A DNA stretch of 56,349 nt. It comes from a virus. Below, one piece after another: positions 3,394-46,549 of this stretch. A program made the translations under genes and the position numbers. Position 1 is the stretch's first letter. Every line of letters starts with the position of its first letter. The notes under the pieces are model-generated. The model saw nothing but the letters and a program-made list of their open reading frames with translations. It was not told the DNA's origin and ran no database searches. The stretch lies in the UHGV virus genome UHGV-0011358. The stretch is one strand, 5' to 3'.

Positions 3394-3427
3394 ATTTTCC
3401 ATTTTGTAAACCGGAGGTAATAACATA

Positions 3428-6886: not shown

Positions 6887-7062
6887 TGGTGAGTTATTAC
6901 AGGGCCAAACCTACAGGCATTTTGTATAAGGTTGATGGCGAATACGTTTATTACTTTCACAATCAGGCGCGTGAGTGGCGATTGTGTCACGCGCACTTAC
7001 AGCACGAAATAGAAAATCACCCTGAATATTTTATCAAAGTTGACAATGTAACTGTGGCGTAA
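6886..7062 (+). CDS. hypothetical protein
   Basis: 58 aa ORF; ATG overlaps the ninB stop (TAATG). Confidence 0.4.
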   Translation: MVSYYRAKPTGILYKVDGEYVYYFHNQAREWRLCHAHLQHEIENHPEYFIKVDNVTVA

Positions 7063-9424: not shown

Positions 9425-12400
9425 TTATTCTTCGCTTCCTGTGAACTGACTGACAAGCGCTTCAAGTTTTGCGATCCGCTCATCCATTGCGGCAATATTA
9501 GCTTTCAGGCTGGCGTTTTCCTCTTCCAGTTCTGTGACGCGGTTATCTGTTTCTCGTGCCACCTGGACAAGCAAACCAGTCACCGCCGCATAGTCAACAT
9601 TAAGGTAGCGTGTTTCTTCTCGTAGCTCGTTGCCGTCAACGGTCGGCCCCTGCAATTCATTACCGTAACGAGTAAACGATCCTACGGCTTCCGGTAGCGC
9701 CTCCATTACTTCCTGTGCAATAACGCCAGCATAAGGAAGGCCGTTTTCCTTGAGCGTGTAGGTGTACCCGTTCATTTTGCGGATTGATTCAGTGGCTTCA
9801 CCTATAACCTGAATGTTATCTTTAAGGTCGCGGTCAGATGATTGGTGAAGTGTCTGGCATGTGATATTACCGCTAACATCAAACATTTGACCTGATGATG
9901 TTTTTTGTGCATAAAACAGGTATCCGGCAGATGTTCCAACCTCAAAAACGTTTTGTCGATCACTTGACCCCCAGACCCTGATGCTAACTGGTAGTTCTGA
10001 ATTACCTGAATTAAGTAAAGCAAAACGACTGCCCGTCCCTGTTTGTTTTCTAATTACTAAATCGGCAGTTGAATTAACCTCATTTTTGTTAACGGTTAGC
10101 GCCTGTGCTGTAGCACCGTTGACAGTACCGCTTAGTAGTTGCACTGCGCCATCATCGCCATTTAACAGCACTTGAGCGCTGCTTCTGTGGTTTTTCAGGA
10201 ACAACATTTTGCCTGTGCTTTCCGATGTACCTACCGACCACGCCGAATTGGTTTCAGTGCTATCAACACCACGCACAGTACAATTCATCGCGCTATAATC
10301 TGACGTACTTCCAAGCACATCAATTCGCCCACCACCAGATTTTACAGGAGTATCAGTGGTTAACGACCTTACGTTTACATCCTGATTCCTTCCTGAAACA
10401 ACAACCTGACTCCATGCCGACCAATTGCCATTTTCATAATAGCGAACGTATATTTGTTTTGTGTCTGTGCCAACAAGGGTTTGCAAGTTTGTATAATCTG
10501 AATCCGTGATCTTACGAATTGACTCTACACGAAGCAAAAAGTTGCCGCCTACGCCGTCAGGCTTATTGGTAATATTTGCACCGCCTCCGGCACTTTTGCA
10601 TTGATAGTATTTAACTGATCCTTTATCTGAGGCCTTAATGGTCAGATCATTAAGATCAATAGTCAGGTCGCCAATGTCTTCAGGCTCGATTGCTCCCGAT
10701 ATACCTGCGTTAAATGTGGCAAGGTCAGAAAATGTTGTTTTACCGCCTACCGTTAACCCGCTATCGAGTTTTGCTTGTGTAATTACTTTGCTGTTTTTTG
10801 AGTGGTCAGAAGAATTACCAAAATACAAATCACCGTCACCAGCTATACCTAGGTATTTTTGATCAACATCATCAACCTTAAACCCAATGGACAAGTTTTT
10901 AATTGTGTTGTTGCTCGTTAAAACCAAAGGCGTATGCTGAGATCCTTTGATGCTTACCGTAGTGTTATCGGAACTGGTGCTTGTGTTTGCAAATTCTGCG
11001 GTGGCTGCGCTGATTTTGTAAGTTATTTTTAGATTGCGGGCCTCAACCCTCCCGTCGTGGCGAACAATAAAATCACCACTTGATTCACCTTTTGTGTTTT
11101 TCGCCCTGATGTGGATTTCGCCAAGTGATTCGTTGTTTTCAGGCGACCAAACAACGCCGCGCTCGCTTCCGTCGTTGTTCATGAACCACAGATGAGCGGT
11201 TCCTTTTGCTGATTTTAGCCTGATAGATGGCATTTCTTTCAATATATCAAGATCACCAGACATAACATCGCCGGATTTTTTCACCTGCGCATCGTTCGTT
11301 ACGTTGCCAAGTCCAACATCCGATTTCGACGGCTTGTTTTGGGTTCCGTATAGCTCATTAATGGCATAAGTGCCGCTGTTGAGTCCAGTATCGTTACCAG
11401 CGAAAATCTTGACCCTGGCCTTTTCGTATTCGATATTAATCGCTGACCACGTATCACCGCACCGAGAGAATACACTAGAACCGTGGTTATAATGGGTCGC
11501 CGTGCTTCCGGTAGGCTTATCGGCACGCCAGAAATGACCGCCTTTGTCACGCAGTGCTTTTAATAGTTCTGTATTGCTCATCTTGCCGTTTGTTGCTATC
11601 CCGCTACCGCCAAGACCGAAAGCGCCTGTAAGCATAGCATTAGAAAGGCCCAAATCTGCCTTGCTGGGTTTGTTTACCTGGTCGTAAATCCTTGCTGCTG
11701 GGCTTTCAATATATCCAGCGGGTGCGTCGGCTTGCTCAACAAATCCTTCAGGAATGTATAATTCCGTGTTGCCAGTCTGCGCCAGCACCGCTACTTTTGT
11801 GTTTTTAATATAAGATCGCTGGTAGCACCAGACCTCGATATAGCCGTCACCTTTAACCAGGCCGTAACACATTTGACCATTATTGGGAAGGTTTGGTGAA
11901 CCGAGTCGGCGAATACTTAAAAATTTAGATATATTTTCACTGGTTACTTCGCCTGTGTCGTTAAGACCTCGAGCGGAGATCTCTATAAAGTCAATATTCC
12001 CGTAACTTAAACCGTAGCCACCGCCATTTGTAACCATTAGCGTTAAGTGGCAGTCTGATGACTTTGGATCGCTAAGTTTAGCAATCTTAACGTAAGCGCC
12101 ATTACCGCTAGTTTTAACAGGCCAAGCACATTGGACCATTGGGCTGGTAAGCCTTCCCATTTGATTCAGATATTCTTGCGCCCTGTTCTCTGATGTTTTG
12201 GCGTTGGTTTCGCTTGTTTTCGCTGCCGTCTCACTTGCCTTAGCGTTGGTTTCTGATGTTTTCGCTGCCGTGGCGGATTTTGCAGCCGCTGTTTTTGACG
12301 CTTCTGCTGCGTTTTTGTCGGATCCTGTTTTTTGAGCGTTGGCGGTTGATTTGGCTGTCTCTGCGCGAATGTTGGTAAGAAGCTGATCCAACTGACCTTC

Positions 12401-12745
12401 GCCGCCAAAATCCTCCCACCACTCGACAGCGGCGGCGATCTCTGTTTCCTTGCCCTGGTAGTAACGCAGGGTTTCAGCCACATCCTGAGCAAGCCCATCA
12501 ACTGAGATCGAGTCAGATAGCAGGATGCTGAATTTTGTCCCGGCAGGGATGGCGGGGTTAGCCGCTGGCGTCACTGACAGTTCAGTGCCGCTTTTAATTT
12601 CTGTGATGGTAAAGATCTGTACCGGATTGCCAACAGCAATGAGCGTGCAGCCTACACGAATGAGAGAAAGCGGCGCGGAGAAGTTTGTGCCCGTGCCTGT
12701 AACAGTATTGCCGCTAATGGCAATTGTTCCAGTTGTGTAAATCAT
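9425..12745 (-). CDS. tail fiber / tailspike with C-terminal S74-type intramolecular chaperone domain
   Basis: 1106 aa; Ala/Lys/Thr-rich repeat region; C-terminus DLKDNIQ...GVIAQEV...YAAVTGLLVQ resembles the self-cleaving chaperone domain. Confidence 0.8.
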   Translation of the reverse strand: MIYTTGTIAISGNTVTGTGTNFSAPLSLIRVGCTLIAVGNPVQIFTITEIKSGTELSVTPAANPAIPAGTKFSILLSDSISVDGLAQDVAETLRYYQGKETEIAAAVEWWEDFGGEGQLDQLLTNIRAETAKSTANAQKTGSDKNAAEASKTAAAKSATAAKTSETNAKASETAAKTSETNAKTSENRAQEYLNQMGRLTSPMVQCAWPVKTSGNGAYVKIAKLSDPKSSDCHLTLMVTNGGGYGLSYGNIDFIEISARGLNDTGEVTSENISKFLSIRRLGSPNLPNNGQMCYGLVKGDGYIEVWCYQRSYIKNTKVAVLAQTGNTELYIPEGFVEQADAPAGYIESPAARIYDQVNKPSKADLGLSNAMLTGAFGLGGSGIATNGKMSNTELLKALRDKGGHFWRADKPTGSTATHYNHGSSVFSRCGDTWSAINIEYEKARVKIFAGNDTGLNSGTYAINELYGTQNKPSKSDVGLGNVTNDAQVKKSGDVMSGDLDILKEMPSIRLKSAKGTAHLWFMNNDGSERGVVWSPENNESLGEIHIRAKNTKGESSGDFIVRHDGRVEARNLKITYKISAATAEFANTSTSSDNTTVSIKGSQHTPLVLTSNNTIKNLSIGFKVDDVDQKYLGIAGDGDLYFGNSSDHSKNSKVITQAKLDSGLTVGGKTTFSDLATFNAGISGAIEPEDIGDLTIDLNDLTIKASDKGSVKYYQCKSAGGGANITNKPDGVGGNFLLRVESIRKITDSDYTNLQTLVGTDTKQIYVRYYENGNWSAWSQVVVSGRNQDVNVRSLTTDTPVKSGGGRIDVLGSTSDYSAMNCTVRGVDSTETNSAWSVGTSESTGKMLFLKNHRSSAQVLLNGDDGAVQLLSGTVNGATAQALTVNKNEVNSTADLVIRKQTGTGSRFALLNSGNSELPVSIRVWGSSDRQNVFEVGTSAGYLFYAQKTSSGQMFDVSGNITCQTLHQSSDRDLKDNIQVIGEATESIRKMNGYTYTLKENGLPYAGVIAQEVMEALPEAVGSFTRYGNELQGPTVDGNELREETRYLNVDYAAVTGLLVQVARETDNRVTELEEENASLKANIAAMDERIAKLEALVSQFTGSEE

Positions 12746-12922
12746 CTCGATGACTCCATTTTGTTAATTAACGGAATAATTCTACCATTTTATGATCTGT
12801 GTTGCATTTTCTGCTTACACAAAATGTATTTGTTGATTTATATCAATATACGAAGTGTTGTTTTGTCGGATATTCAAGACACCGGATGAACCGGACGAGC
12901 TAACAAGAACGAGGATTAAAAA

Positions 12923-13171
12923 ATGAAAAACATGTTCAAAGTGGTTTTATTCTCTGCGGCTGTAGCTCTTACTGGTTGCGCTGTTGACAAAGAGACCGCA
13001 TTGCATAACCTGCCGAATAGCGGAGTAATTCCACAAGATGTTGTCTATGATGGTGAAGGTCATCTTGTCTATGACACTGAAAAACTGCCTTATACTGGTC
13101 AATGGTGTCATGAACTCGATCACAACATGCGCCGCATCGGTAGCCCTTCTAACTGTGTAGCTAACTACTAA
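12923..13171 (+). CDS. small lipoprotein (moron; Cor-like candidate)
   Basis: 82 aa; signal peptide with lipobox LTGC; opposite strand to flanking tail genes; own terminator. Confidence 0.65.
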   Translation: MKNMFKVVLFSAAVALTGCAVDKETALHNLPNSGVIPQDVVYDGEGHLVYDTEKLPYTGQWCHELDHNMRRIGSPSNCVANY

Positions 13172-13178
13172 AAGAAAA

Positions 13179-13200
13179 CCCCGCGCGAAGCGGGGTTTTT
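13179..13200 (+). terminator. rho-independent terminator (bidirectional)
   Basis: CCCCGC-GCGAA-GCGGGG hairpin followed by TTTTT. Confidence 0.6.
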
Positions 13201-13202
13201 GT

Positions 13203-16200
13203 TTATCCTGAGAATGAACCAGAACCGCGCGACACTATGACTGTCGGCGAATTTATATAAGCCCCCTTGTCATTTTGAGCAGATACCTTAATTTTAACTG
13301 TAACGCCCCTGCTGGTTACTGCTGCTGAATGCATAACAAGGCGCTCCGTGCCATCCAGTGCTAAACCTTTTGATGAACCGCCAATTGTTATTGTGCAACC
13401 ACCAAAACCCTTAACGTTAGCCATAACGCAGATATGTCGGCTATACGCTGCGTCAGATGTGTCATTGTATGTTATTACTTTTTCTAACGCCCCATCCCTT
13501 AACGTGCTAACGTCAGAACCTGTGTACATGTTTGCAACATCACCGATAAAGGTTTTCGCCTCAAGTGAACCGGTAAACTTGCCGCTGTCTGCATGTATTT
13601 CACCCCTTACAACAACGTTGTTAAATTCTGATGCGCCGCTTTGTGTTATCCTCCAACCATTGGAACCGGGGACGAAGTTTGCTGATTTAATTTCATTGAC
13701 AATTTTAGCCATAGTAATGGAGGCATCTGCAATTTTAGCTGTCCCTATTGATGCATCCTTAATAAATGCCTCTTTCACATACATTGCGCCGTTAGTGACA
13801 TAGAAGGGCGATGTATATGCGCCGTTTGCCGCCGTCATTAACATAAAGCGATCAACAAGGAAAATACACTGCGACTGAAAGTTAGTGCCGTCACCAGTAA
13901 GGCCAAGCGACATACCTGTAGCGTATTTTACGCCATTGCTATCTGTGGCGAGCTTGATTGAATATGTCGCATCAACATTACCCCTAAAGTCGGTTAACGC
14001 TTTAGATGTCGTCTCTATTGCCGTCTTGTTCCCGTTAACGGTCACTGTTAGCTGATCAATTTTCGTTGACAACGCCTCGTCTGCCGTAGCCATTGTCTGC
14101 GACCATTCTGTAATACTTGAGTTTACTGATTCGAAAGACGCTGAGATCTGGCTAAATTTTTCCGCGCTTGATTCCTCATGCGTAGAGAGCGCCGTCGACA
14201 CTTCAGATACTTTTGAGTTGATCGTACTGGTAAGCGATGCGCTAAGGCCGCTTATTGCGTCCGCGCGTGCTTTTTTTTCGTCGGCGATGGCTTTGTCCAT
14301 CCTGGTGACGTTGCTTGTCACTTTATTATCAAGCGTGCTGACACTTGCGCTAACTTCGCTGATAGCTTGTCCTCTGGCGCTTGTTTCGTCAGCAATTACC
14401 TGATCAAGACGGTTTACGCTTGCTTCAGTCTTCTTATCAAGATTAGTGATCGATGCGTTTACACCGCTAATGGCTTCAGCCGTTGCTTTTTTCTCTTCAG
14501 CGATAACGTTGTCAATACGGTCAATTTTCGCGTTGGTTTCTCTGATTCCTTTCTTGTATTGGGCTGAAAGAGTAACACGCGTGTTGGTTTGAGCGATTGA
14601 GTTATTGATAAGTGCAATAGATGCGTTTTGCAGGCTTGCTTTTGCCTGATTTATTTCGTCGCTGTTTTTGCCAACATTATTTTCAACAGTGCCAAGATTT
14701 GCGCTGAGGCCTGATATTGCCTGAGCGCGGGCGCTTGATTCATCGGCAATTGCCTGATCAAGACGCTTAACGCTGGCGTTTGTGCTGTTCTCAAGCGTTG
14801 TTAAGTCTGCTTTAACCTCTGTTATTGCGTCGCTTCTTGCCTTCGTTTCGTCTGATATTGCTTTATCAAGGCGGGAAACGCTGGCATCTGTTTTCTTATC
14901 AAGGCTGTCTATTGATGCCTTCACGCCGCTAACGGCCTGTGCGCGGGCACTGGCCTCGTCAGCGATTGCCTGATCCAGGCGTTTAACGCTGGCGTCAGTT
15001 TTCTTATCAAGTGCCGAGATACTTGCGTTAACGTCACTGACCGCCTGTGTGCGGGCGTTCGTTTCATCTGCAATAGCCTGATCAAGCCTATTGACGCTGG
15101 CATCCGTTTTCTTGTCGAGATTGCTTATTGAGGCGTTCACACCGTTAATAGCTTCAGCGCGGGCACTAGCCTCGTCAGCCACTGCGCGTTCCACACTGGA
15201 GATCTGACCTTTAAGGTTGGAATCCATCGTGTTCATTTCTGCCGTGATGGTTTTCAGTGATTCAGCCGTTGCTTTTTTCTCTTCAGCGATAACGTTGTCA
15301 ATACGGTCAATTTCCGCTTTCGTTTCCGTTCTGCCTTTTTTGTACTGGGCGGTAAGGGTAACGCGCGTGTTTGTCTGTGCAAGCGAGTTGTTGATAAGCG
15401 CCAATGACGCGTTTTGCAGGCTTGCTTTTGCTTGCGCCAGTTCGCTGCCAACTTTTTCGCTGGACACTTCTAATAGGTCAATCCTGGACTCATGCTGACC
15501 AATATCATCGGCGTTTTCCTTAACTTTTTTGTAAAGATCTTCCGTTTCTTTTTTAAGTGTATCGGTGTCAGCTTTTATTGTTCCCGTTTCTGTGATCAGG
15601 TTGTCAGTGTCAGTCCTTAAATCTTCAGTTACGTTCGTAAGGTTATCAGTTGTAGTTTTGAGGTTGTCAGTAGCTGTTTTCAGTTCTTCCGCAACACCTT
15701 CGATAACATCGGTGCGGTCGCCTAGATCTTTGATGTCACCAATCATTTCCTTGAACTGTTCCGACCCCATGACATCCTTCATCACGTAGTCACTGATTTC
15801 ATCAAAATTCTCTGTCGGCTTACCTGACGCCTCTACAAAGTCAGACACGCCAAAAGCATTGCGTGTGCGCACGTAAACGTAATAAGTATGGCCCGTGTTC
15901 ATTCCGCCGAACGTCCACTGATAACCACGTCCGGTATATTGTGCATTAGTGGGGACTAATGCCGGATTAGTGATTTGTGTTTCGCCAGCAAAATAGAATT
16001 CATAGCTTGTATCGCTGGTCAGAGTTGTTTTGCTGATTGGGTATACAGTAGCCTGAAATACGCCTGGTATCCAGTTAACACCAATTGGTTTTGAAGGTGC
16101 ACCAATAACGAGATCAACGATAGATTCCGCGCCTTTCATACCGGTATCATTGCGGGCGCGAACGCCTAAAGAGTATTGACCGCAATTCAGGCCATTAAAA

Positions 16201-18215
16201 TCATACCGGAATTCGGTCGTCTCATAACTGGCGACAACTTTGCTGTCTTCGTTATAAACACGTAATTCAAAGGTCAGGCGGTGAGTTGTGGTCTGCGTCA
16301 TCCACGACGCGGAGCACTGAACGGTTTCGGAACCAACATTCATTACCTTGAGGTTTTCAATGTTAGGAACACGGAAATGATTCAGCGTGTCGTTGTTGAT
16401 TTCGAAGACTGCGCCTTCATCAACTACGGCCTGTTTGTTAGGGTCGTGCTGTGCGGCTTCGATAGTGTATACGCTGTTATTTTCTGTTTCTGCTACGCTG
16501 GTGATCCTACATAAAACGGGTTTTGCTGCTTCAGTCGATACAGCAAAAACAGTGCCATTGCGAATCCATGCCGGGGCCGCAGCAAGGGTAATATTGTTTC
16601 CATTAACTCCGGTGATCTGGTGTTTTTTAAATTTACCATCGCTATCAAGTAAGCTGATGGTGTCACCAGCCGCGATATATTCAGAATCAACCTTGTCGAC
16701 CGTTATCACTTTGCCATTGTTCGCCACGATACGACCGCCTAAGCGAGCGCCTGCGCGGTTATTGTCGAGGATCTCGATGATATCCCCTGGTGTAAAGTGA
16801 ATGGCGTCACGGGCCATTTTAAACGTGAATTTTGACGGCTCGCGTTTTGCTGTTTCGATCAGCCATTTACCAGCGCGATAAGCCTGTCCGCGAGACGTGC
16901 ACCCGAACGCCTCTAGCGTGGTTTCGTTGTAGCCGTCGCGGGCGATTAGTTCATCGTCAGAAACGTATTCTTTTGACTGTTCCCAACCGTTACCCGGATC
17001 GGTCCAGGATACAATCACGGCGTTGTAGCACTCCGCGCGGGCAAGGCTCGAACGGGTGAATGCACCATCTACGACATTTGCGTTCGTGATAGTTGCAATC
17101 GGATCTTGTGGCGCATCAATCATCACTGTAAGACGTTGCCCGTCCCATAACGCAATACCACGGAACATGCCAGCAATGTTATCCAGTAGGTCGCGGGCGC
17201 TCATTTGCTCCGTAATGTAAGCGTTAAGCGTCATGCGAGGTTCAAGGCCACCATAGCCATCATCAACCAACTGATCGCAGTATTGGGAGAGCACGTACAA
17301 AGCGCCATCATCAACATCAATGTAACCAGCATGTCGAGCAAGCCCGAAGCGCTCGTTTTTAACCAGATACCGGAAAATCCACGCAGGGTTATTGGTGTAC
17401 GCTTTTTTGAATCCACCAAGCCATAAGCCCGAATATGTGCGCGTTTCTGTGTTGTAGTTATCAGGCACGTCAACAATCAGGCCGCGAAGATGATAGGTGC
17501 GGGTAGGTGTATCAGTGTACTGGTCATGGTCAATCACAGCGCCAGCTACAGCGGTATGAGGATAAGACAGATTATCGTCTATGATTTCGCTGTAACTACT
17601 CCACCGCGTATCATTCTGCAATAGATCGCTGTTGCTGTCTGCTGTTATGCGACGAATGCGAATATCAAACGGTTTTTCATCCGGCGCTTTGATAATGTGA
17701 GCTTCCAGATATTCACCGCTTTGTTTACCGGGGCCAATGTGTATATCTTTAATCAGCGACCATGTAGAAGATGATGACGGTTTAACGTCAACCATCAACA
17801 TAACGGATGTATTGTATTGATTGCCCTTGTCGTCTGACTGAACGAGAGCGTCAACACCAAGATTCAACCTGACGCGGGTAACGTTTGGATCTGAAACAGT
17901 CCTGATTATTGGCGTGTCGTGAGTTACCTTTGCGTTGACAATAACGGTTGACTCGATGGCATTAAAACCATTAATCGGCGATTGGTCAGCCGTGCCGTTT
18001 CGCCAGGCTATACTAATCCCCGGTATTGATGTATTCCCGTTTGCGTCAGTAACAGGCGTGTCATTAAGCATCACGTTATTCAGTGGTGCTTTCTGGTTTA
18101 CCGGACCATATATCGGCCCCTCACTGAGAATATCTAAGACACGATAAAACTGTTTATGATACAGGTTATCGTTCAATAATGTTGGTGTTTTGGCTTTGCC
18201 GCCGCCGCTACTCAT
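13203..18215 (-). CDS. J: central tail fiber / host specificity protein J
   Basis: 1670 aa; N-terminal two thirds align by eye with lambda J; has an added coiled-coil repeat insertion. Confidence 0.9.
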   Translation of the reverse strand: MSSGGGKAKTPTLLNDNLYHKQFYRVLDILSEGPIYGPVNQKAPLNNVMLNDTPVTDANGNTSIPGISIAWRNGTADQSPINGFNAIESTVIVNAKVTHDTPIIRTVSDPNVTRVRLNLGVDALVQSDDKGNQYNTSVMLMVDVKPSSSSTWSLIKDIHIGPGKQSGEYLEAHIIKAPDEKPFDIRIRRITADSNSDLLQNDTRWSSYSEIIDDNLSYPHTAVAGAVIDHDQYTDTPTRTYHLRGLIVDVPDNYNTETRTYSGLWLGGFKKAYTNNPAWIFRYLVKNERFGLARHAGYIDVDDGALYVLSQYCDQLVDDGYGGLEPRMTLNAYITEQMSARDLLDNIAGMFRGIALWDGQRLTVMIDAPQDPIATITNANVVDGAFTRSSLARAECYNAVIVSWTDPGNGWEQSKEYVSDDELIARDGYNETTLEAFGCTSRGQAYRAGKWLIETAKREPSKFTFKMARDAIHFTPGDIIEILDNNRAGARLGGRIVANNGKVITVDKVDSEYIAAGDTISLLDSDGKFKKHQITGVNGNNITLAAAPAWIRNGTVFAVSTEAAKPVLCRITSVAETENNSVYTIEAAQHDPNKQAVVDEGAVFEINNDTLNHFRVPNIENLKVMNVGSETVQCSASWMTQTTTHRLTFELRVYNEDSKVVASYETTEFRYDFNGLNCGQYSLGVRARNDTGMKGAESIVDLVIGAPSKPIGVNWIPGVFQATVYPISKTTLTSDTSYEFYFAGETQITNPALVPTNAQYTGRGYQWTFGGMNTGHTYYVYVRTRNAFGVSDFVEASGKPTENFDEISDYVMKDVMGSEQFKEMIGDIKDLGDRTDVIEGVAEELKTATDNLKTTTDNLTNVTEDLRTDTDNLITETGTIKADTDTLKKETEDLYKKVKENADDIGQHESRIDLLEVSSEKVGSELAQAKASLQNASLALINNSLAQTNTRVTLTAQYKKGRTETKAEIDRIDNVIAEEKKATAESLKTITAEMNTMDSNLKGQISSVERAVADEASARAEAINGVNASISNLDKKTDASVNRLDQAIADETNARTQAVSDVNASISALDKKTDASVKRLDQAIADEASARAQAVSGVKASIDSLDKKTDASVSRLDKAISDETKARSDAITEVKADLTTLENSTNASVKRLDQAIADESSARAQAISGLSANLGTVENNVGKNSDEINQAKASLQNASIALINNSIAQTNTRVTLSAQYKKGIRETNAKIDRIDNVIAEEKKATAEAISGVNASITNLDKKTEASVNRLDQVIADETSARGQAISEVSASVSTLDNKVTSNVTRMDKAIADEKKARADAISGLSASLTSTINSKVSEVSTALSTHEESSAEKFSQISASFESVNSSITEWSQTMATADEALSTKIDQLTVTVNGNKTAIETTSKALTDFRGNVDATYSIKLATDSNGVKYATGMSLGLTGDGTNFQSQCIFLVDRFMLMTAANGAYTSPFYVTNGAMYVKEAFIKDASIGTAKIADASITMAKIVNEIKSANFVPGSNGWRITQSGASEFNNVVVRGEIHADSGKFTGSLEAKTFIGDVANMYTGSDVSTLRDGALEKVITYNDTSDAAYSRHICVMANVKGFGGCTITIGGSSKGLALDGTERLVMHSAAVTSRGVTVKIKVSAQNDKGAYINSPTVIVSRGSGSFSG

Positions 18216-20155: not shown

Positions 20156-20275
20156 CTTGTCATTTTGTGATCGCTGTCACGCTAAATCATACCAAAACGG
20201 TTGATAGCGCTTTTTACAATATGTATATTGTACTCAAAAGGAAGCAGGGTTAACAAAATGGCGCGGAGGTGTGAG

Positions 20276-20431
20276 ATGGCTGATAAGGTGTGGAGGTTGA
20301 CGGTATTCCTGTCAGGCGGCAGGGAAATGACTGTAGCTCTGTATAAAGACGAAGGCGAGGCACTAACTGACGCGCTTTTACTTGCTGAAGATGACCGCGT
20401 TTTGGGATACAGGATCGAACCTGCCAAATAG
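20276..20431 (+). CDS. hypothetical small protein (moron island B)
   Basis: 51 aa from ATG 20276 with GGAGGT RBS; opposite strand to tail genes. Confidence 0.35.
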   Translation: MADKVWRLTVFLSGGREMTVALYKDEGEALTDALLLAEDDRVLGYRIEPAK

Positions 20432-20497
20432 GAGGTTAACAAAAAATGAAAAAAATACAGGTTAGACGTGTGGACTGATAAATGCGAATGGGAAAGC

Positions 20498-20797
20498 ATG
20501 GGGCTATTTGACACATTCGAATCAGCGCGTGATGAAGGTTGTGAATTGCTCCGCTGTTGGTCTAGTGCTCGTGATTATTATGTTATTCCGGTACAAGTGC
20601 AGGATAAGGTGGAAGAGATGAACCCGAAAGATATTAACTTTAACGTCAGTGTTGAATTTGCTGACTCTATGGATCAGTCTTGCCCTGGTGAAATACACGC
20701 AAAAGGTTTCCCTGCTGACGATCCAGAAGCAAAACGCGAATACGAAAAAGCTGCGAAAGACTTCTGCATAGATAACCTGGGCGCATTCGATAAATAA
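20498..20797 (+). CDS. hypothetical protein (moron island B)
   Basis: About 100 aa acidic ORF; start uncertain. Confidence 0.4.
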   Translation: MGLFDTFESARDEGCELLRCWSSARDYYVIPVQVQDKVEEMNPKDINFNVSVEFADSMDQSCPGEIHAKGFPADDPEAKREYEKAAKDFCIDNLGAFDK

Positions 20798-20806
20798 GGC
20801 GGCAAC

Positions 20807-21055
20807 ATGGGGAGGCGCAATCACGGCGATTATGTGTACACGTTGAAACAGGCCGCCCGCCTCATCGGTTATCATGAGCACGAATTTATTGATTTGCTGA
20901 TTGAGCGCGGGATACTGTACCAGGTCTGTTTAACGCTGTACCCAAAAGCGAAATACCTACAGGAAAAGTTATTTATCATCATGACGGACGAAAACCAGGT
21001 TAATCATTCATTCGTCACTGATAAGGGCGTTAATTATCTGCGTGATAACTTGTAG
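20807..21055 (+). CDS. hypothetical protein (moron island B)
   Basis: 82 aa ORF. Confidence 0.4.
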   Translation: MGRRNHGDYVYTLKQAARLIGYHEHEFIDLLIERGILYQVCLTLYPKAKYLQEKLFIIMTDENQVNHSFVTDKGVNYLRDNL

Positions 21056-21065
21056 GTGACAGATT

Positions 21066-21182
21066 ATGAAAATAGAAGTTTTGGTGCTAATAATAATGGG
21101 ATTGATAGTATTTGGCGTTCATGCTGTAGAACTGGACTGGAAAACGATAGCGGAAAATATAGCATTAATGGAAATGGAATAA
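21066..21182 (+). CDS. small hydrophobic peptide (moron island B)
   Basis: 38 aa with one predicted TM segment; AGGTGA RBS; terminator follows. Confidence 0.35.
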   Translation: MKIEVLVLIIMGLIVFGVHAVELDWKTIAENIALMEME

Positions 21183-21188
21183 CAATAA

Positions 21189-21213
21189 CCCCGCTTCTCG
21201 CGGGGTTGTGTTT
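21189..21213. terminator. rho-independent terminator
   Basis: CCCCGC-TTCT-CGCGGGG hairpin then T-rich tract. Confidence 0.5.
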
Positions 21214-21762: not shown

Positions 21763-21932
21763 GATTCCCCCTATAAGTTACATATTGCATACATCTTTAC
21801 GCGCTTCTACGCGAAAAATGAGAAATTCATCACAAGAATTATAACCAGTTTACAAAATGGCTTCACATAAGGCGTGACAAGATGTATATAGTAAGCAAGA
21901 AGAAAAAGCAGTACCGACAAAGGGGGGACAAC

Positions 21933-22088
21933 ATGGAACGCTATATGGTTGTGATGCTGAACAAAGCATTCGAACAGGTGGAAGTTGCGATTGTGAAGGG
22001 CTTTGATGATGCATTCAAATACGGTCAATTCATGATGAATGCAAAAGAAGATGAATACCGTGATTTCTTCCTGAAAGTGGTCAGCTAA
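21933..22088 (+). CDS. hypothetical small protein (moron island C)
   Basis: 51 aa; strong G-rich RBS. Confidence 0.4.
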   Translation: MERYMVVMLNKAFEQVEVAIVKGFDDAFKYGQFMMNAKEDEYRDFFLKVVS

Positions 22089-22106
22089 TGGATTGTGGGG
22101 TGTGTT

Positions 22107-22361
22107 ATGAAATTGGTGGCGATTGGTAAAAACCTGAAAGCACAGAAAAACGCACAGGACCGGATCATCAAAAAGGGCAAGGCTTTATTAAATGCTTTCC
22201 TGAAAAAAGAGGCCAACCCCAAAAAATTACGCGATGGCTACGGTTATAAATTTGACATCAACCCCGATTGGCGGTTATTCAGCGAAGATTTAAAGATGTG
22301 GTTAATTATTGACCACCTGGAATATAACAGGCACTGTGGGGTGAAAGGCGCTCACAAGTGA
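22107..22361 (+). CDS. hypothetical protein (moron island C)
   Basis: 84 aa basic ORF. Confidence 0.4.
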   Translation: MKLVAIGKNLKAQKNAQDRIIKKGKALLNAFLKKEANPKKLRDGYGYKFDINPDWRLFSEDLKMWLIIDHLEYNRHCGVKGAHK

Positions 22362-22392
22362 CACGGATTTGAATGTTGCGGAGGAAAACAAA

Positions 22393-22563
22393 ATGAAAAA
22401 TCCGGCAAATAAAAGCAACGTAAAACGCATAGCATGGGTGCTAAAATATATGGATAGTAAAGGGGATACATATACATGCCCATTTTTTAGGTATACTGAC
22501 GCGGTATTTGCCAGAAGTGTACACGGAGGGAAAATTGAAAGAGGATATACAAGATTTGAGTAA
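22393..22563 (+). CDS. hypothetical small protein (moron island C)
   Basis: 56 aa; GGAGGA RBS. Confidence 0.4.
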   Translation: MKNPANKSNVKRIAWVLKYMDSKGDTYTCPFFRYTDAVFARSVHGGKIERGYTRFE

Positions 22564-22601
22564 ATTTATTCACGAAATCAATAACATGATGAAGGTTTAT
22601 A

Positions 22602-22781
22602 ATGATTATTCACGAGACTGAAGAATGTAGAAGGATTGATCTTAGTGTTGAAGATGATGGAAGATTATGGATCGTTAGCGACTGCGAGATGATTGTAATA
22701 GACAAAAAGCAAGCTGACGAACTGATAAGCGCATTACAGCTTTATGCAAACGGCGAATTTAAAAATGATGAAATTGAATAA
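22602..22781 (+). CDS. hypothetical small protein (moron island C)
   Basis: 59 aa ORF not in the track; terminator follows. Confidence 0.35.
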   Translation: MIIHETEECRRIDLSVEDDGRLWIVSDCEMIVIDKKQADELISALQLYANGEFKNDEIE

Positions 22782-22787
22782 AAATAA

Positions 22788-22810
22788 CCCCGGCATTGCG
22801 CCGGGGTTTT
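22788..22810. terminator. bidirectional rho-independent terminator
   Basis: CCCCGGC-ATTGC-GCCGGGG hairpin flanked by T-runs on both strands. Confidence 0.6.
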
Positions 22811-22812
22811 GA

Positions 22813-25800
22813 TTATTTGCGGCGCGGTTGCAGCATTCCGCCCGGTCTGGATGATTCGCGGTGTATCAGGCCCATGCAGATCTTTTCCATATCCTGCTGT
22901 AGTTTTTTGGCGTCCTCATCACTCCATCCATTTTGTGGGTAAACGCTAATCGGTGCGTTTATACTAACGTTACCACCACCCGCACCACCAATGTCGCGAT
23001 TTGGTATTACCCTGCCGTTGTCACCAGGAATCATATACTGTTCACCGTTTCGAGATTGGAAGATCTCTGGCTTACCGTGTTCCCCTACGCGATACAGGCT
23101 ACCACCGTTAACCGCACCGCCGTTATAACGAGCGCCAGCCAGTCCAAGCGTTTTGGCGGCAGCGACGCCAGTAGTAAGCCCAGTAAGTCCAGTGGCCCCA
23201 GCGCCGCCCATCGTGGCAACGTTTGCCAGGTATGCAGGAGTAGCCCACGCTGATGATAACGCTGCCGCCTCTGCCAGTGCTTTGGTTGTTGCCATAGTTC
23301 TTGCTGTATCACCAATCAATTGCTGCTTGACCCACTCAGTACCCATTTGAACAATCGTACCAATCACGGAGGAAAGGATTGTATTGCCAATGTTAGCGAT
23401 CGCCTGTTGCCAATTTTGAGTACCGTTAATCAGGCCGACAAGCGCGTTAGTTGCGGATCCGCTCATTGCATCAACAGCATCGCCTAACAGTTGGTTGGTC
23501 AATGACTGCGCCTTATACCTCTCCCACTGAAGTGATAGCATTTCCCTCTCATGCGCTTTTTCTTGCTCCCTCATATATTGCTCTGTAGCGCCTAAATCTG
23601 TGAGCATCTGCTTGCGAACCGCCCATTCATTCATCGCCTGCTGAATTGGGTCTAGTTGCCCGCGTAGTTGTAGCTCTTTGTTTACCAGATTATCCCAGCT
23701 AGCCTGACGTTTGCGTTGTTCCTCGGTTCCAATTAATTCTTTCCATGCCTTATTATATTGTTCCGCGCTTATTTTGCCGCTTTTTAATGCTGCATTTAGC
23801 GCATCCTGATCCTCTTTTAATTTCCGTTGCGCGGCGGCTTCTACATTGTATTTATCTGCAACATTCTGGCCCCGTTTCTCAAGCTCTTTGCGCAGGCGTT
23901 CAGCCTCTTTTAGATGTTTTTTCTCCTCGCTTTCGCCAGTTTTTTTCCCATGACTGGCCTTTCTTTCAGCTTCGGCGCGTTTCTGCTCGGTGTCGTATGC
24001 TTTGGTCATTGTAGCCATGTATTTTTCATACGCTTCCCCGGTCAGGTTTGCTTTCTCAGCCTCACGCTTAAACCCATCAATCGCCTTTTCCCTGCTGGCT
24101 GTTTTGGAGTCGAGTTTTGCCAGCTCCAGGCGGCGGTTTGCCAGATTCATTAATTCTTGCTGATCTGCGTTAAGTGCTGCTGAAGCGTGTTGCGTTGCTG
24201 CTGCTGCGCGTTCTGCTTCTGTGGTGATTCTTCCGTATGCATCCGCTACCAACCCCAATGAAGTGGCAACGGTCTTCATTAGCGGATCTGTATCCTGCAT
24301 AAGCAGAATATATTTGCGCTGCATTTGATTAAGGCGGTCGAGAATATCCTCACGCTGCGCCTCTTCCCTGGTCAGGCGGGCTGTGATTTCCTGATTAGCT
24401 TTCGATAGGTTGGCGTAAGCGCGTGACCCCTCCTCTGCTTTCTCCAGTGCCTGTTTATTCAGTTCCAGCGCCTGCGTGTCCTGGTCAATCTGTTTGTTGA
24501 GACTGGCAACGTCTTCCTCTAACTGACCCATTGATATTTGTAGTTTATCTGCACCAGCCAGCTTAGCCGCCTTACTCATTCGTTCCAGTGATTCGGTACT
24601 AACGTCCACTGAATCGGCAAGGTTGCGGTTTGCCTCTGCCGTTTGATCTACGTGATCTACATATGCTGTCAACCCGTAAACAGCAAGCATTAACGCGCCA
24701 GGGATACCACCAATCGCACCCAGAGTAGCGCTAAACGCTGTTTTTAGTAGCCCTGCATTAGCCGCCGCCGCAGTGTGGGCCGCAGCAAGGCGCTGCTCTG
24801 CCGCAGTAAGGGCGTTTGATGCCGCTGTGTTCTGTGCTTTGGCTACAGCCAATTCTTTCAGTGTCTGAACTTCGAATTTTGTTCCGGCATTTGCCGCAGC
24901 ATAAGCCTGCGCCTCTCTCAACCTTGCCGCCGCCGCCGCTACTGATTGCCGTGCTGATACCACCTGAGCGTTAGCTAGCGCCAATTCACTCTGAGCGGCC
25001 TGCCGTGCCGCTGCCGTTTGTGCCCTGGTCGCCTGAGCGTTAGTTAATACCTCTGCTGTTGCAGCTACGAATTTATTTACCACTCTGCCACCCATCACAG
25101 TGGCAATGCCAATAAATGCAGTAGCTATTTCGTTAAGGTTTTCTGACAGGGTTACAACTGCCGAATTAAAAGCACCAATCCCGCCCATAATTGACGAATT
25201 GCTGCCGAAAAATTTAGCTGCGTTGTTGCCTGCAACAGTGAAAGCCTCCTGCATAGTTGGGGTGAGTTTAGAAAACTCAGCATCAACCTCCGCTTTCATT
25301 TCCTTAAGGGCTTTAATGATAGCTTCACGGGTGATTTTCCCTTCTGCTGCCATCTTGCGCATTTCCGCTGACGATACGCCCAGTGATTTAGCCAAACCCT
25401 CTGACAGCCTGGTGGCGTTTTCTGTAACGGAGTTAAATTCATCGCCATTCAAAACACCTTTGGCGAGGGATTGACCCAACTGACGGATCCCGCCTTCTGC
25501 TTCAGCGGCAGAAGCGCCAGAAATGCGGAATGTTTTGTTAATGGTTTCAACCATATCACCAAGTGCTTTCGTCGATAAACCAGCGTCGCGCGTCGAGCGC
25601 TCTAATTTACCGTAAAGATCTGCTGTAGCATCAAGATCGCTTCGTGAATTTTGCGCGATCTGAAATACACGCTGATTAACGTCTGCCAGTGATTCACCAG
25701 CACGAACGCTATTGATTAGCCTGTTATTCACCTCCTGCCAGGCGTTTGCATACTCAATGATTTTTTTTGCTGCCATTGCAGCACCCAGGGCACTGGCAAT

Positions 25801-25968
25801 CGAGGATAGCTTTGACAGTGACTTACTTGCCTGAGTGGCGGCACTATCCACGCGCTCCAAATCCTTTTCCATTTTGCCAGTTGCGCGATCTACCTCGCGC
25901 TGAACAGTCAGAAGCTGACCCGTTTTTGCATCAACCTCGTAATAAATTGTGCCTAAATTTGTTGACAT
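22813..25968 (-). CDS. H: tail tape measure protein
   Basis: 1051 aa, coiled-coil rich, Gly-rich C-terminus; sits upstream of M-L-K-I-J. Confidence 0.9.
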   Translation of the reverse strand: MSTNLGTIYYEVDAKTGQLLTVQREVDRATGKMEKDLERVDSAATQASKSLSKLSSIASALGAAMAAKKIIEYANAWQEVNNRLINSVRAGESLADVNQRVFQIAQNSRSDLDATADLYGKLERSTRDAGLSTKALGDMVETINKTFRISGASAAEAEGGIRQLGQSLAKGVLNGDEFNSVTENATRLSEGLAKSLGVSSAEMRKMAAEGKITREAIIKALKEMKAEVDAEFSKLTPTMQEAFTVAGNNAAKFFGSNSSIMGGIGAFNSAVVTLSENLNEIATAFIGIATVMGGRVVNKFVAATAEVLTNAQATRAQTAAARQAAQSELALANAQVVSARQSVAAAAARLREAQAYAAANAGTKFEVQTLKELAVAKAQNTAASNALTAAEQRLAAAHTAAAANAGLLKTAFSATLGAIGGIPGALMLAVYGLTAYVDHVDQTAEANRNLADSVDVSTESLERMSKAAKLAGADKLQISMGQLEEDVASLNKQIDQDTQALELNKQALEKAEEGSRAYANLSKANQEITARLTREEAQREDILDRLNQMQRKYILLMQDTDPLMKTVATSLGLVADAYGRITTEAERAAAATQHASAALNADQQELMNLANRRLELAKLDSKTASREKAIDGFKREAEKANLTGEAYEKYMATMTKAYDTEQKRAEAERKASHGKKTGESEEKKHLKEAERLRKELEKRGQNVADKYNVEAAAQRKLKEDQDALNAALKSGKISAEQYNKAWKELIGTEEQRKRQASWDNLVNKELQLRGQLDPIQQAMNEWAVRKQMLTDLGATEQYMREQEKAHEREMLSLQWERYKAQSLTNQLLGDAVDAMSGSATNALVGLINGTQNWQQAIANIGNTILSSVIGTIVQMGTEWVKQQLIGDTARTMATTKALAEAAALSSAWATPAYLANVATMGGAGATGLTGLTTGVAAAKTLGLAGARYNGGAVNGGSLYRVGEHGKPEIFQSRNGEQYMIPGDNGRVIPNRDIGGAGGGNVSINAPISVYPQNGWSDEDAKKLQQDMEKICMGLIHRESSRPGGMLQPRRK

Positions 25969-26125
25969 GATTTAACCTCATACAAAATGTGATCTATGCC
26001 TCTATTTTATACAAAATGGATTTACTTCAGTGAACACATTTTGTATAAAGAAGCCAAAGGAAAGGGATTGAGCGAATGGATTCAGAAGACCGGATGAACC
26101 GGAGGAAGCAAAAGAGGATAAGAAA

Positions 26126-26215
26126 ATGAAAAACGTAAACTACCACCCCAACGAACATGAGCGCTATGCAGACTTTATTGAAGAAATGCTGAAGGCACTT
26201 AAAAACAAAAAATAA
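26126..26215 (+). CDS. very small ORF (moron island D)
   Basis: 29 aa; preceded by a leader homologous to the one at 12868-12922. Confidence 0.3.
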   Translation: MKNVNYHPNEHERYADFIEEMLKALKNKK

Positions 26216-26346
26216 TTGGGTTGGTTAAATGGACACAATCAAAACGGTTATAGATGTATATATTACAGCATGGTTAGCATTTAATGTGATGGCTGTACTG
26301 GTGCTGGCAATGACAACCGAAGATAAACGTAACTGAGAGGTGTATC

Positions 26347-26649
26347 ATGGAACTGGTAATTTGCTTCATCGGATTTATCGCAACTATGGTTGTGGCTCAG
26401 AAAAAACATCTGAATATGCTCCTGGCATTCTTTGGTGCGCTGATTTGCTGGCCTGCTGTATTGATTTACGCACTGTGCGTTAACAAAAGGATGTTCAAAC
26501 ACTACGTTGATGCAGTGACTTTTGTAAGCATGGAGTTCCCGAACGCAACTGACGTACAGAAAGCACAGGTCGCAACTTACATTTACGATAACGTGTACGA
26601 TATTCACGACTTGGATGAGGCAAGATGCAGATTTGCAGCATACAAATAA
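26347..26649 (+). CDS. small integral membrane protein (moron island D)
   Basis: 100 aa with two hydrophobic helices; opposite strand to tail genes; own terminator. Confidence 0.55.
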   Translation: MELVICFIGFIATMVVAQKKHLNMLLAFFGALICWPAVLIYALCVNKRMFKHYVDAVTFVSMEFPNATDVQKAQVATYIYDNVYDIHDLDEARCRFAAYK

Positions 26650-26657
26650 AGATAAAG

Positions 26658-26680
26658 GCCCGGCTAATCCCGGGCTTTTT
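26658..26680 (+). terminator. rho-independent terminator
   Basis: GCCCGG-loop-CCGGGC hairpin followed by TTTTT. Confidence 0.55.
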
Positions 26681-27353
26681 CTTGCTCGCTATTTTCCATT
26701 CTTTTTAGTATCTCCATAGCCTCCCTCATTCCATCGTCATAAGCCTTTTTATCCAGTAATACATCTGGTCGTTTTTGTTTGTTTCTTGCTTCTGGCGGCG
26801 TTTTAGCACGCACAGCGGCTCTATATCCGGTCATTGTCATATTCCACGCTTCTGATTCTGATAACCCCAGGTGAGCAACGGCAGAATAAACAAACTCCAG
26901 TATGTCGAACGTTGGTTTGTATTCACCTTCCCGTCTCTCGCTTGCAACCTCTTCAGGGCCGTCACCGATTAAACCGTGGTACATGCAGTGTTGCGCCAGT
27001 GTAATAACATCATCAACAGGCATTATTCCTGATTTTAGCCTTAGTTTACCTGAGGGAGTGAACCAGCATTCGCCTAATAACGAGCCTGTTTCGTCGTCTG
27101 AGCAACATTTCAGGATGTGTATAGACGTTTGCACTATCTCACCATAACACCGCGCCATAATGCGATTGCGGAGGTCTGGATCTGTAGGTAATCGTGAAGG
27201 GTATTTGCTGCCGTGGATAAGTGCGAAATATTCGACAAGCTCACTATCGTTGCCGATTTTAGCCATCGCAGCAAAGCAAGGATTAAATTCATAGCGCTTA
27301 CCGTTCACCACAGCCGCAAATTGTCCTGTACGAACATGGATCATAGTATTCAC
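26664..27353 (-). CDS. putative tail assembly chaperone (G/GT position)
   Basis: 229 aa ORF between major tail protein and tape measure; assignment by position only. Confidence 0.45.
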   Translation of the reverse strand: MNTMIHVRTGQFAAVVNGKRYEFNPCFAAMAKIGNDSELVEYFALIHGSKYPSRLPTDPDLRNRIMARCYGEIVQTSIHILKCCSDDETGSLLGECWFTPSGKLRLKSGIMPVDDVITLAQHCMYHGLIGDGPEEVASERREGEYKPTFDILEFVYSAVAHLGLSESEAWNMTMTGYRAAVRAKTPPEARNKQKRPDVLLDKKAYDDGMREAMEILKRMENSEQEKARD

Positions 27354-46348: not shown

Positions 46349-46549
46349 TAATGCTCTCTCCTTTTCAGGTGATTTCTACGCATTTCAGCGCTGCCGGATT
46401 TTTAAAGAGCATTTTGTTTGCTTGAAGTATACAAAATGGATACACCAGAACAAGGCGAAAAGCGCCATTATGTGATCCATATCACACAATGACGCCATTT
46501 TGTAAACTTCAGTCCGGTAAAACGCTGGCGTGGTTAGCTAAAAGCTGTT

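Follow-up and report, generated by a model that had tools for sequence, protein, structure and literature searches.

The window analysed here is the whole 56,349-nucleotide stretch of UHGV virus genome UHGV-0011358, from a temperate E. coli siphophage that belongs to the mEpimmI (mEp021-like) group described in PMC11893012. Its tail region is 79-95% identical to those of mEp013, mEp554, mEp044, mEp010, mEp515, mEp021 and MagusPhagus. Four islands (A to D) on the plus strand lie antisense to the minus-strand tail operon, and their positions are kept across the phage group. Islands A and D are preceded by similar leaders, each with a Shine-Dalgarno sequence (SD), several GGA motifs and a short upstream open reading frame (uORF). 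Parts of the two leaders, in window coordinates, are as follows.

12868-12931, plus strand: A-type leader block, made up of GGAU, core, SD and codons 1-3; it is homologous to 26076-26134 and kept in 18 distinct A-type leaders
12881-12898, plus strand: tandem 9-mers ACCGGATGA and ACCGGACGA with two GGA motifs, as read from the sequence
12882-12894, plus strand: potential hairpin CCGG-AUGAA-CCGG of the A leader
12886-12903, plus strand: uORF encoding MNRTS and a stop
12911-12916, plus strand: SD GAGGAT, which contains a GGA and lies 6 nt before the ATG
26049-26118, plus strand: purine-rich GGA array with 7 GGA (26059, 26065, 26078, 26092, 26101, 26104, 26116), 4 of which are GGAU
26076-26134, plus strand: D-type leader block, homologous to 12868-12931
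26090-26102, plus strand: potential hairpin CCGG-AUGAA-CCGG of the D leader
26094-26129, plus strand: uORF encoding MNRRKQKRIRK and a stop
26114-26119, plus strand: SD GAGGAT of the D leader

Alignment of 12868-12931 with 26076-26134 gives 50 identical columns out of 66 (75.8%), and homology extends from GGAU (12868 and 26078) through the SD GAGGAT to the third codon (ATG-AAA-AAC). The first-pass annotation had described two conserved leaders with about 80% identity. Both sequences lie where it placed them and their similarity is real, while over its own coordinates the figure is slightly lower, 41 of 55 columns (74.5%). Smith-Waterman alignment of the intergenic regions scored 56, compared with 18.3±2.6 in dinucleotide shuffles (maximum 35; 0/2000 as high), which places the similarity beyond shuffled controls. 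With the SD and ATG removed, the score was still 34 versus 16.7±2.4 (0/2000). Across the whole window each leader finds its best match in the other one; for random 64-mers the best match elsewhere scores 27.1±5.4. The exact 15-mer ACCGGATGAACCGGA occurs twice on the plus strand, at 12881-12895 and 26089-26103. Because one shared exact 15-mer is not rare by itself in 56 kb, significance derives from the extended alignment and from the equivalent position of the two blocks. The downstream genes, 12923-13171 and 26126-26215, both start with MKN, in agreement with the annotation. A third gene start, GAGGAAAACAAAATGAAAAA, at 22381-22400 inside island C, has a similar SD and AUG-AAA-AA context without the CCGG core, and part of the similarity between A and D may thus represent a generic strong start.

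To describe the leader family, sequences were drawn from seven sequenced phages, from IMG/VR contigs found via the lipoprotein of island A, the motif of the 29-aa gene of island D or the leader pattern, and from two divergent E. coli prophages. The resulting census comprises 18 distinct A-type and 24 distinct D-type leaders (n=42), and both types recur throughout the mEpimmI group, with mEp010, mEp554 and mEp044 each having the two of them, in accordance with the proposal that the islands share a homologous leader. Conserved content in the 42 leaders consists of CCGGAU-N3-CCGGA, the SD GAGGAU and the first codons AUG-AAA-AAC (AUGAAAAAC). At least one core GGA is present in all 42, at least one core GGAU in 41, and a GGA lies within the SD in 39. 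A-type relatives carry CCGGAU in unit 1, in unit 2 or in both, every A-type leader keeping at least one. Loss of the GGA from unit 1 (CCGGGU or CCUGAU) goes along with CCGGAU in unit 2 and vice versa, a pattern that looks redundant. Two leaders (L016 and L018) have GGAU without AUG, indicating that GGAU, and not AUG, is the retained feature.

Leaders of one type share an identity of 0.89, those of different types 0.61. A and D leaders from the same genome are no more alike than those from different genomes (0.612 vs 0.615), which rules out gene conversion between A and D; judged from these alignments, the two copies are old paralogues. By the same comparison, the identical 15-mer in the window comes from alleles that happen to coincide. 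Across the D set, variation along the locus is lowest from -39 to +10 (pi 0.02-0.08, compared with 0.10-0.20 in the coding sequence, CDS). The distance between core and AUG is constant within each type. It also remains unchanged in three IMG/VR leaders (L028, L043 and L052) in which an insertion of ~130 nt, rich in purines and GGA, follows the island-D promoter region and precedes the block. Island D of mEp013 and island A of mEp021 and of mEp515 keep the upstream region containing TACAAAATG but have a different leader and gene, with break points of the swaps at about window positions 26058 and 12830. The block thus travels with the cargo and its start codon, not with the promoter. The earlier idea that the leader was duplicated together with its cargo holds in so far as the block stays with particular cargo in these swaps; the A and D cargo proteins themselves are unrelated past codons 1-3.

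Two divergent D-type leaders, 78-79.5% identical, were found in E. coli PAR (L163) and E. coli O157:H7 LSU61 (L164) at positions ~700-775. Their cores read CCGGAUGUCCCGGA and ACGGAUGUCCCGGA, the gene start is ATGAGAAAC, and 7-8 GGA are kept.

GGA motifs are abundant in both leaders. Within 70 nt before the ATG there are 4 in A and 7 in D, close to the means of their relatives (3.6 and 6.8, respectively), and in both leaders one GGA overlaps the SD. On the plus strand of the whole 56 kb, GGA density in 70-nt windows peaks at the D leader (7, with a mean of 0.59 and sd of 0.86). The excess is most pronounced for GGAU, of which 3-4 were observed per 70-nt leader when 0.3-0.4 were expected from composition (p<=0.005); in the D leader alone, GGAT occurs 4 times vs 0.37 expected. 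In the long-leader variant L028, about 172 nt hold 13 GGA and 6 GGAU, as opposed to 7.8 and 0.9 expected. A density of this order is known from CsrB and CsrC, the RNAs that sequester CsrA.

Folding of the leaders with RNAalifold revealed a single consensus structure, a 4-bp CCGG/CCGG hairpin (-5.35 kcal/mol) with 98.4% of cells paired. It is intact in 39 of the 42 leaders, with three breaks and 0 compensatory changes. The stem change in mEp021, UCGG/CCGG, makes a G·U wobble and pairs on the plus strand only. The A hairpin alone has -5.5 kcal/mol, and the folding ensemble of the A leader is ambiguous; in the folded D leader the hairpin has a pair probability of 0.98, and the SD stays open (unpaired probability 0.79). 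Compared with their shuffles, the leaders show no additional structure (minimum free energy z of +0.58 and +0.88). A GGAU tetraloop is possible only in the divergent L164, in the alternative hairpin GGAC-GGAU-GUCC. A larger RNA structure or riboswitch was rejected on the grounds of this one short hairpin without covariation, the z values and the empty Rfam search. An alternative UUCA/UGAA pairing around the core, checked by eye across alleles, was also dropped, since its covariation is not consistent.

The first-pass annotation presented a mini-uORF as a feature of the leader shared by the two islands, an emphasis that is not supported. Both uORFs in the window do start with MNR, and the window D uORF ends in a TGA that overlaps the gene ATG (ATGA, 26126-26129). 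This is a minority allele, found in 6 of 24 D-type leaders. The core AUG is present in 16/18 A-type leaders, where either unit of the 9-nt tandem ACCGGAUGA can carry it, and in 6/24 D-type leaders, most of the latter reading AUU, AUA or GUU. The G of the AUG is the third and most variable base of the pentaloop. Peptides differ among relatives (MNRTS, MNQQE, MNRTNQQE, MSRMSKQE and others), as does the position of the stop; in the window A leader, 19 nt separate the uORF stop (12901-12903) from the ATG. No SD of their own was found 5-10 nt upstream of either uORF start, 12886 or 26094, and the uORFs of the relatives lack one too. A conserved uORF is ruled out by the census of 42 distinct leaders, and the MNRTS uORF is probably incidental. 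Control by the uORF, with the MKN gene translated in dependence on, or gated by, translation of the MNR mini-ORF, could draw on the two uORFs of the window and the TGA-ATG overlap in D, on the in-frame AUG in unit 1 or 2 of 16 of the 18 A-type leaders, and on leader-peptide coupling known elsewhere (EvgL-evgA, idlP-iraD). Against it stand the scarcity of the AUG in D-type leaders and its absence from L016 and L018, the missing SDs, and the lack of conservation of peptide sequence, length and stop position, so that we consider it quite improbable.

Taken together, these features are consistent with a module of ~60 nt that would function on the plus-strand mRNA and comprise a stretch of 5' untranslated region (UTR), the SD GAGGAU and AUG-AAA-AAC, present as two old paralogous copies ahead of two unrelated cargo operons. 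Its fixed distance from the AUG, its linkage to the cargo, the stem change that pairs only on the plus strand and the unstructured, purine-rich composition suggest that it acts within the ribosome-binding region of the mRNA. Selection would keep the array of GGA/GGAU motifs and not the uORF: two motifs in tandem, ACCGGAUNA-ACCGGA, which can fold as the 4-bp CCGG hairpin, one in the SD, and more upstream in the D copy, the remainder of the leader being unstructured and rich in purines. Such a module may set or modulate ribosome loading. As a putative mechanism, a dimer of CsrA, the GGA-binding repressor of the host, could bridge core and SD sites 15-29 nt apart and occlude the ribosome-binding site (RBS), whereby both cargo operons would be tied to the Csr state of the host. 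We regard a leader module working at the level of translation, with an incidental uORF, as rather probable, while CsrA is a doubtful candidate for the factor involved. The joint reading, a portable leader for initiation and control of translation that is most plausibly a GGA array of the CsrA type, is tentative and falls somewhat short of an even chance. Co-regulation of islands A and D, suggested in the annotation, is plausible at the translational level.

Several observations weigh against a CsrA-type array under selection. GGA alone gives p of only 0.02-0.05 per leader, and purine richness explains part of the excess. The A leader has just 4 GGA under weak constraint, and in the A set the core varies at least as much as the CDS of the lipoprotein (pi 0.10-0.18 vs ~0.08). 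In CCGG-AUNAA-CCGG the first GGA straddles stem and loop, with two G paired and the A in the loop, and the hairpin and GGAU are equally conserved (39/42 vs 41/42), so that these data do not tell a function of the one from a function of the other. Homologues in the census are closely related and non-independent, and counts therefore overstate the evidence. A consensus promoter scan was ambiguous, with 0 sites in D and one distant site in A.

The leaders could alternatively be strong translation starts without any regulation, derived from a single ancestral initiation region that recombination put ahead of two cargoes; the residual similarity would then come from common descent and generic selection for an open RBS. 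Leaders less structured than shuffles, the similar gene start GAGGAAAACAAAATGAAAAA at 22381 without the core, old paralogues lacking concerted evolution, constraint on the A core not visibly above that of the CDS, and the highly mosaic nature of the phage group all agree with it. It does not readily account for the persistence of CCGGAU...CCGGA in 39-41 of the 42 leaders after ~39% divergence between types, when adjacent bases are free to vary, nor for the D-set block being the most conserved part of the locus, above the CDS. The excess is, moreover, specific to GGAU, which anti-SD pairing does not favour. This explanation is possible, if on balance unlikely. The same block might instead be a DNA operator, the direct repeat ACCGGA-N3-ACCGGA being bound by a phage or host transcription factor downstream of the island promoters, given a perfect 6-bp repeat with a 9-bp period in both islands and invariant CCGG blocks that flank a variable centre like half-sites. 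An operator is hardly probable when the distance to the promoter changes with the 130-bp insertion in L028, L043 and L052 and that to the AUG is kept, when the block moves with cargo and not with the promoter, and when repeats with a 9-bp period would face different sides of the helix. The rest of the window contains no matching motif, and the operator-like palindromes of the window are different (TGTGATC-N2-GATCACA).

Function on the minus strand was also considered, where the block belongs to the late tail-operon transcript and might load Rho, signal processing or work as an anti-SD element. Read on that strand it is untranslated, rich in C/U and poor in G, and it precedes the tape-measure and tail-fibre genes by 110-180 nt. 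The two blocks are about equally far from the minus-strand gene starts at 12745 and 25968, and the pyrimidine-rich minus-strand copy can form the same 4-bp hairpin. The mEp021 stem would have a C·A mismatch on that strand, the block includes the plus-strand SD and first codons, and it is replaced together with the plus-strand cargo while sequence proximal to the tail genes stays; a role of this kind is very unlikely. Least probable of all, in our estimate, is a boxB-like target of the N-like antiterminator Gp17. A short GC stem with an A-rich pentaloop is reminiscent of lambda-type nut sites, and the phage group uses an N-like system with three nut sites (PMC11893012). The leaders differ from lambda-type sites in their loop (AUNAA, third base free, not GNRA-like), in lying outside early operons and in lacking boxA: no YGCTCTTWA was found a few nt upstream of the hairpin at either leader, exact matches being located at 46403 and 54582. 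Hairpins next to the boxA-like sites at 46403, 54582 and 55595 are different. Nut/boxB identity was rejected for the absence of a nearby boxA and the wrong loop type. Boxes of the host transcription factors MalT (GGAKGA) and TorR (CTGTTCATAT) were dropped as well, as they fit only the minority allele of the window and not the majority alleles.

Among known systems, the leader would appear to work most like the CsrA-repressed leaders of E. coli (glgC, pgaA; evgL-evgA, idlP-iraD). In classical CsrA sites GGA is critical and often placed in a hairpin loop, the sites are located in the 5' leader, and one of them lies over the SD. CsrA represses evgA, with 4 GGA motifs in its leader, and iraD via short leader peptides, and the stop codon of EvgL overlaps the evgA start (PMC11210196). 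The window leaders resemble this group in having multiple GGA, of which one overlies the SD and another is placed 15-29 nt further upstream in or next to a short hairpin, and the window D allele has the geometry of evgL-evgA, with the mini-ORF stop over the gene start. They differ in that the mini-ORF is absent from most D-type leaders and the genes are prophage cargo and not host genes. Compared with the sequestering RNAs CsrB/CsrC and with mRNA-leader sponges, GGA density is comparable or higher in window D (7/70 nt) and in L028 (13/172 nt), whereas the GGAs are not presented on successive hairpin loops, the molecule is the leader of an mRNA, and Rfam gives no match to CsrB, CsrC or Rsm. We hold it improbable that the leader with its first codons is a portable "expression adaptor" placing new cargo under host Csr control, with the D leader acting in addition as a CsrA sponge that would shift the Csr regulon in lysogens.

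Searches beyond the phage group, which the annotation had recommended in order to find the element in databases, yielded no Rfam family and no credible homologue. Covariance models of Rfam 15 had no match on 12868-12925 or 26078-26125 even at E<=10, the matches obtained being terminators or noise. A pattern scan of 185,579 species genomes (one per prokaryotic species) returned 62 matches, of which 0 were enterobacterial and none leader-like. In IMG/VR, 23 of 28 pattern matches are mEp-like, and two GC-rich contigs have a similar core upstream of an unrelated gene. The latter (L029 and L036; IMGVR_UViG_3300044990_000485 and 3300046011_003581) are phage contigs unrelated to the mEp group, in which CCGGATTAACCGGAGG...GAGGAT...ATG occurs in a purine/GGA-rich leader of an unrelated gene (MKTAQITRERIV...). 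Their likeness in the core could be due to convergence or chance. Of 5,426 complete genomes of E. coli searched with blastn, 10 contain the A leader and 21 the D leader, at one place per genome. Origin from a host-gene leader was rejected, because inspected E. coli matches lie in prophage tail regions. Small ORFs of the PHANOTATE/Pharokka style that cover leaders of relatives (mEp013_105, mEp515_85, MagusPhagus CDS0020) are unsupported, and they overlap promoter or leader on either strand.

Genes and other features surrounding the two leaders in the window are listed below.

9425-12745, minus strand: tail fibre gene
12923-13171, plus strand: island A, whose cargo is an 82-aa type-C Lpp lipoprotein with lipobox LTGC (phrog_12984 lipoprotein, E=3.9e-27)
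13174-13200, both strands: bidirectional intrinsic terminator closing island A
13203-18215, minus strand: J-like tail-tip gene, 1670 aa
~20277-21182, plus strand: island B
~21882-22781, plus strand: island C
22813-25968, minus strand: tape measure gene
26004-26049: shared putative promoter region of island D, with inverted repeat TTTATACAAAATGG...CATTTTGTATAAA, which stays when leader and cargo are replaced
26126-26649, plus strand: island D
26126-26215, plus strand: island D gene 1, 29-aa protein, ATG at 26126
26229-26336, plus strand: island D gene 2, 35-aa membrane peptide
26347-26649, plus strand: island D gene 3, 100-aa membrane protein
21187-21207, 22786-22808 and ~26658-26688: further terminators
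25981-26049, 12818-12827, 20252-20261, 21851-21860, 3399-3408, 6917-6926, 46430-46504, 49823-49832, 54196-54205 and 54663-54672: sites of the TACAAAATG type

The islands have the characteristics of morons: they carry their own terminators, are inserted among genes of a phage operon and vary between relatives, mEp013 having other cargo in island D, and mEp021 and mEp515 in island A. Strong intrinsic terminators close islands A, B and C, bidirectional in A and C and called on the minus strand only in B; those of island D are weaker. Promoters are at best weak sigma-70-like candidates, such as TTTACT-17-TATAAA at 26021-26049. Like morons of lambdoid and HK97-like phages, the islands are self-contained units with a terminator between tail genes, variable or replaced, and one of them carries a superinfection-exclusion lipoprotein (PMC11893012). 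Unlike usual morons, the four islands occupy fixed positions, all antisense to the tail operon, and, unlike in the moron definition, two of them have a homologous leader and first codons in common. A leader common to two morons is not mentioned in the outline, one section and term-searched text of PMC11893012.

The lipoprotein gene of island A is the same gene as mEp010_116, whose product, expressed from a plasmid, excludes mEp010, mEp044, mEp554 and lambda, type-C Lpp being the superinfection-exclusion gene of mEp010-type phages according to PMC11893012. The exclusion lipoprotein presumably acts in lysogens. In two IMG/VR contigs (L020 and L021) its start codon is ATA and not ATG, which reflects a sequencing error or else inactivation of the gene. 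The gene is mosaic: CSP1-type phages (Cronobacter phage CSP1 compared with window 13070-13550) match only its 3' half and the end of the J gene, and in an IMG/VR homologue with 63% identity (L025) the signal peptide is another one and the leader is unrelated. Leader and N-terminus were thus recombined onto the mature domain. The three proteins of island D have no Pfam match, and their comparison with PHROG gave nothing except a weak phrog_15053 hit (unknown function, E=0.0073) for the 100-aa protein.

Upstream of the leaders, a motif of 9-10 nt, TACAAAATG(K) / CATTTTGTA, is present in 18 copies (<=1 mismatch), compared with 7.1 expected, mostly in intergenic positions and upstream of all four plus-strand islands. 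Two copies in region D (26007-26019 / 26036-26049) are arranged as an inverted repeat with TATAAA boxes facing both ways at its outer ends, a candidate for back-to-back promoters or a shared regulator site. For transcriptional co-regulation of the islands, this motif is a better candidate than the leader. Palindromes of the TGTGATC-N2-GATCACA type, TGTGATCCATATCACA and TGTGATTGCGATCACA, lie at ~46470-46491 and ~49800-49850 and are likely CI/Cro operators. Single TGTGATC half-sites (25989-25995, 20163-20169) are located just upstream of the minus-strand tail-gene starts beside islands D and B; at island A (~12790) relatives have TGTGATC and the window reads ATGATCT. Boxes similar to boxA, TGCTCTTTA and AGCTCTTTA, followed by small hairpins, were found at 46374-46411 (minus strand), 54582-54590 (minus strand) and 55595-55632 (plus strand), and are presumably nutL, nutR1 and nutR2 of the Gp17 N-like antitermination system described for mEp021. 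Elsewhere, three tandem 23-bp repeats, GGTAGTGTCAC(T/A)G(T/A)G(A/T)CAC(C/T)GGG, extend from 56282 to 56349, the window end, and could be iterons or a binding array. Inside the J-like gene on the minus strand, five copies of a 77-nt repeat span 14365-15119, four of them spaced 108 bp apart, together with a 174-nt repeat pair at 14475 and 15261.

If the leader were just an inherited strong RBS, its history would be one of ordinary mosaic phage evolution. If it is a regulatory module, temperate phages would reuse one short cassette of translational control for unrelated lysogenic-conversion genes, and a superinfection-exclusion lipoprotein would be linked to host physiology, via Csr should that assignment be right. 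Practically, the leader is a compact 5' UTR independent of its promoter, and its natural alleles AUG, AUU, AUA and GUU make a ready mutational series.

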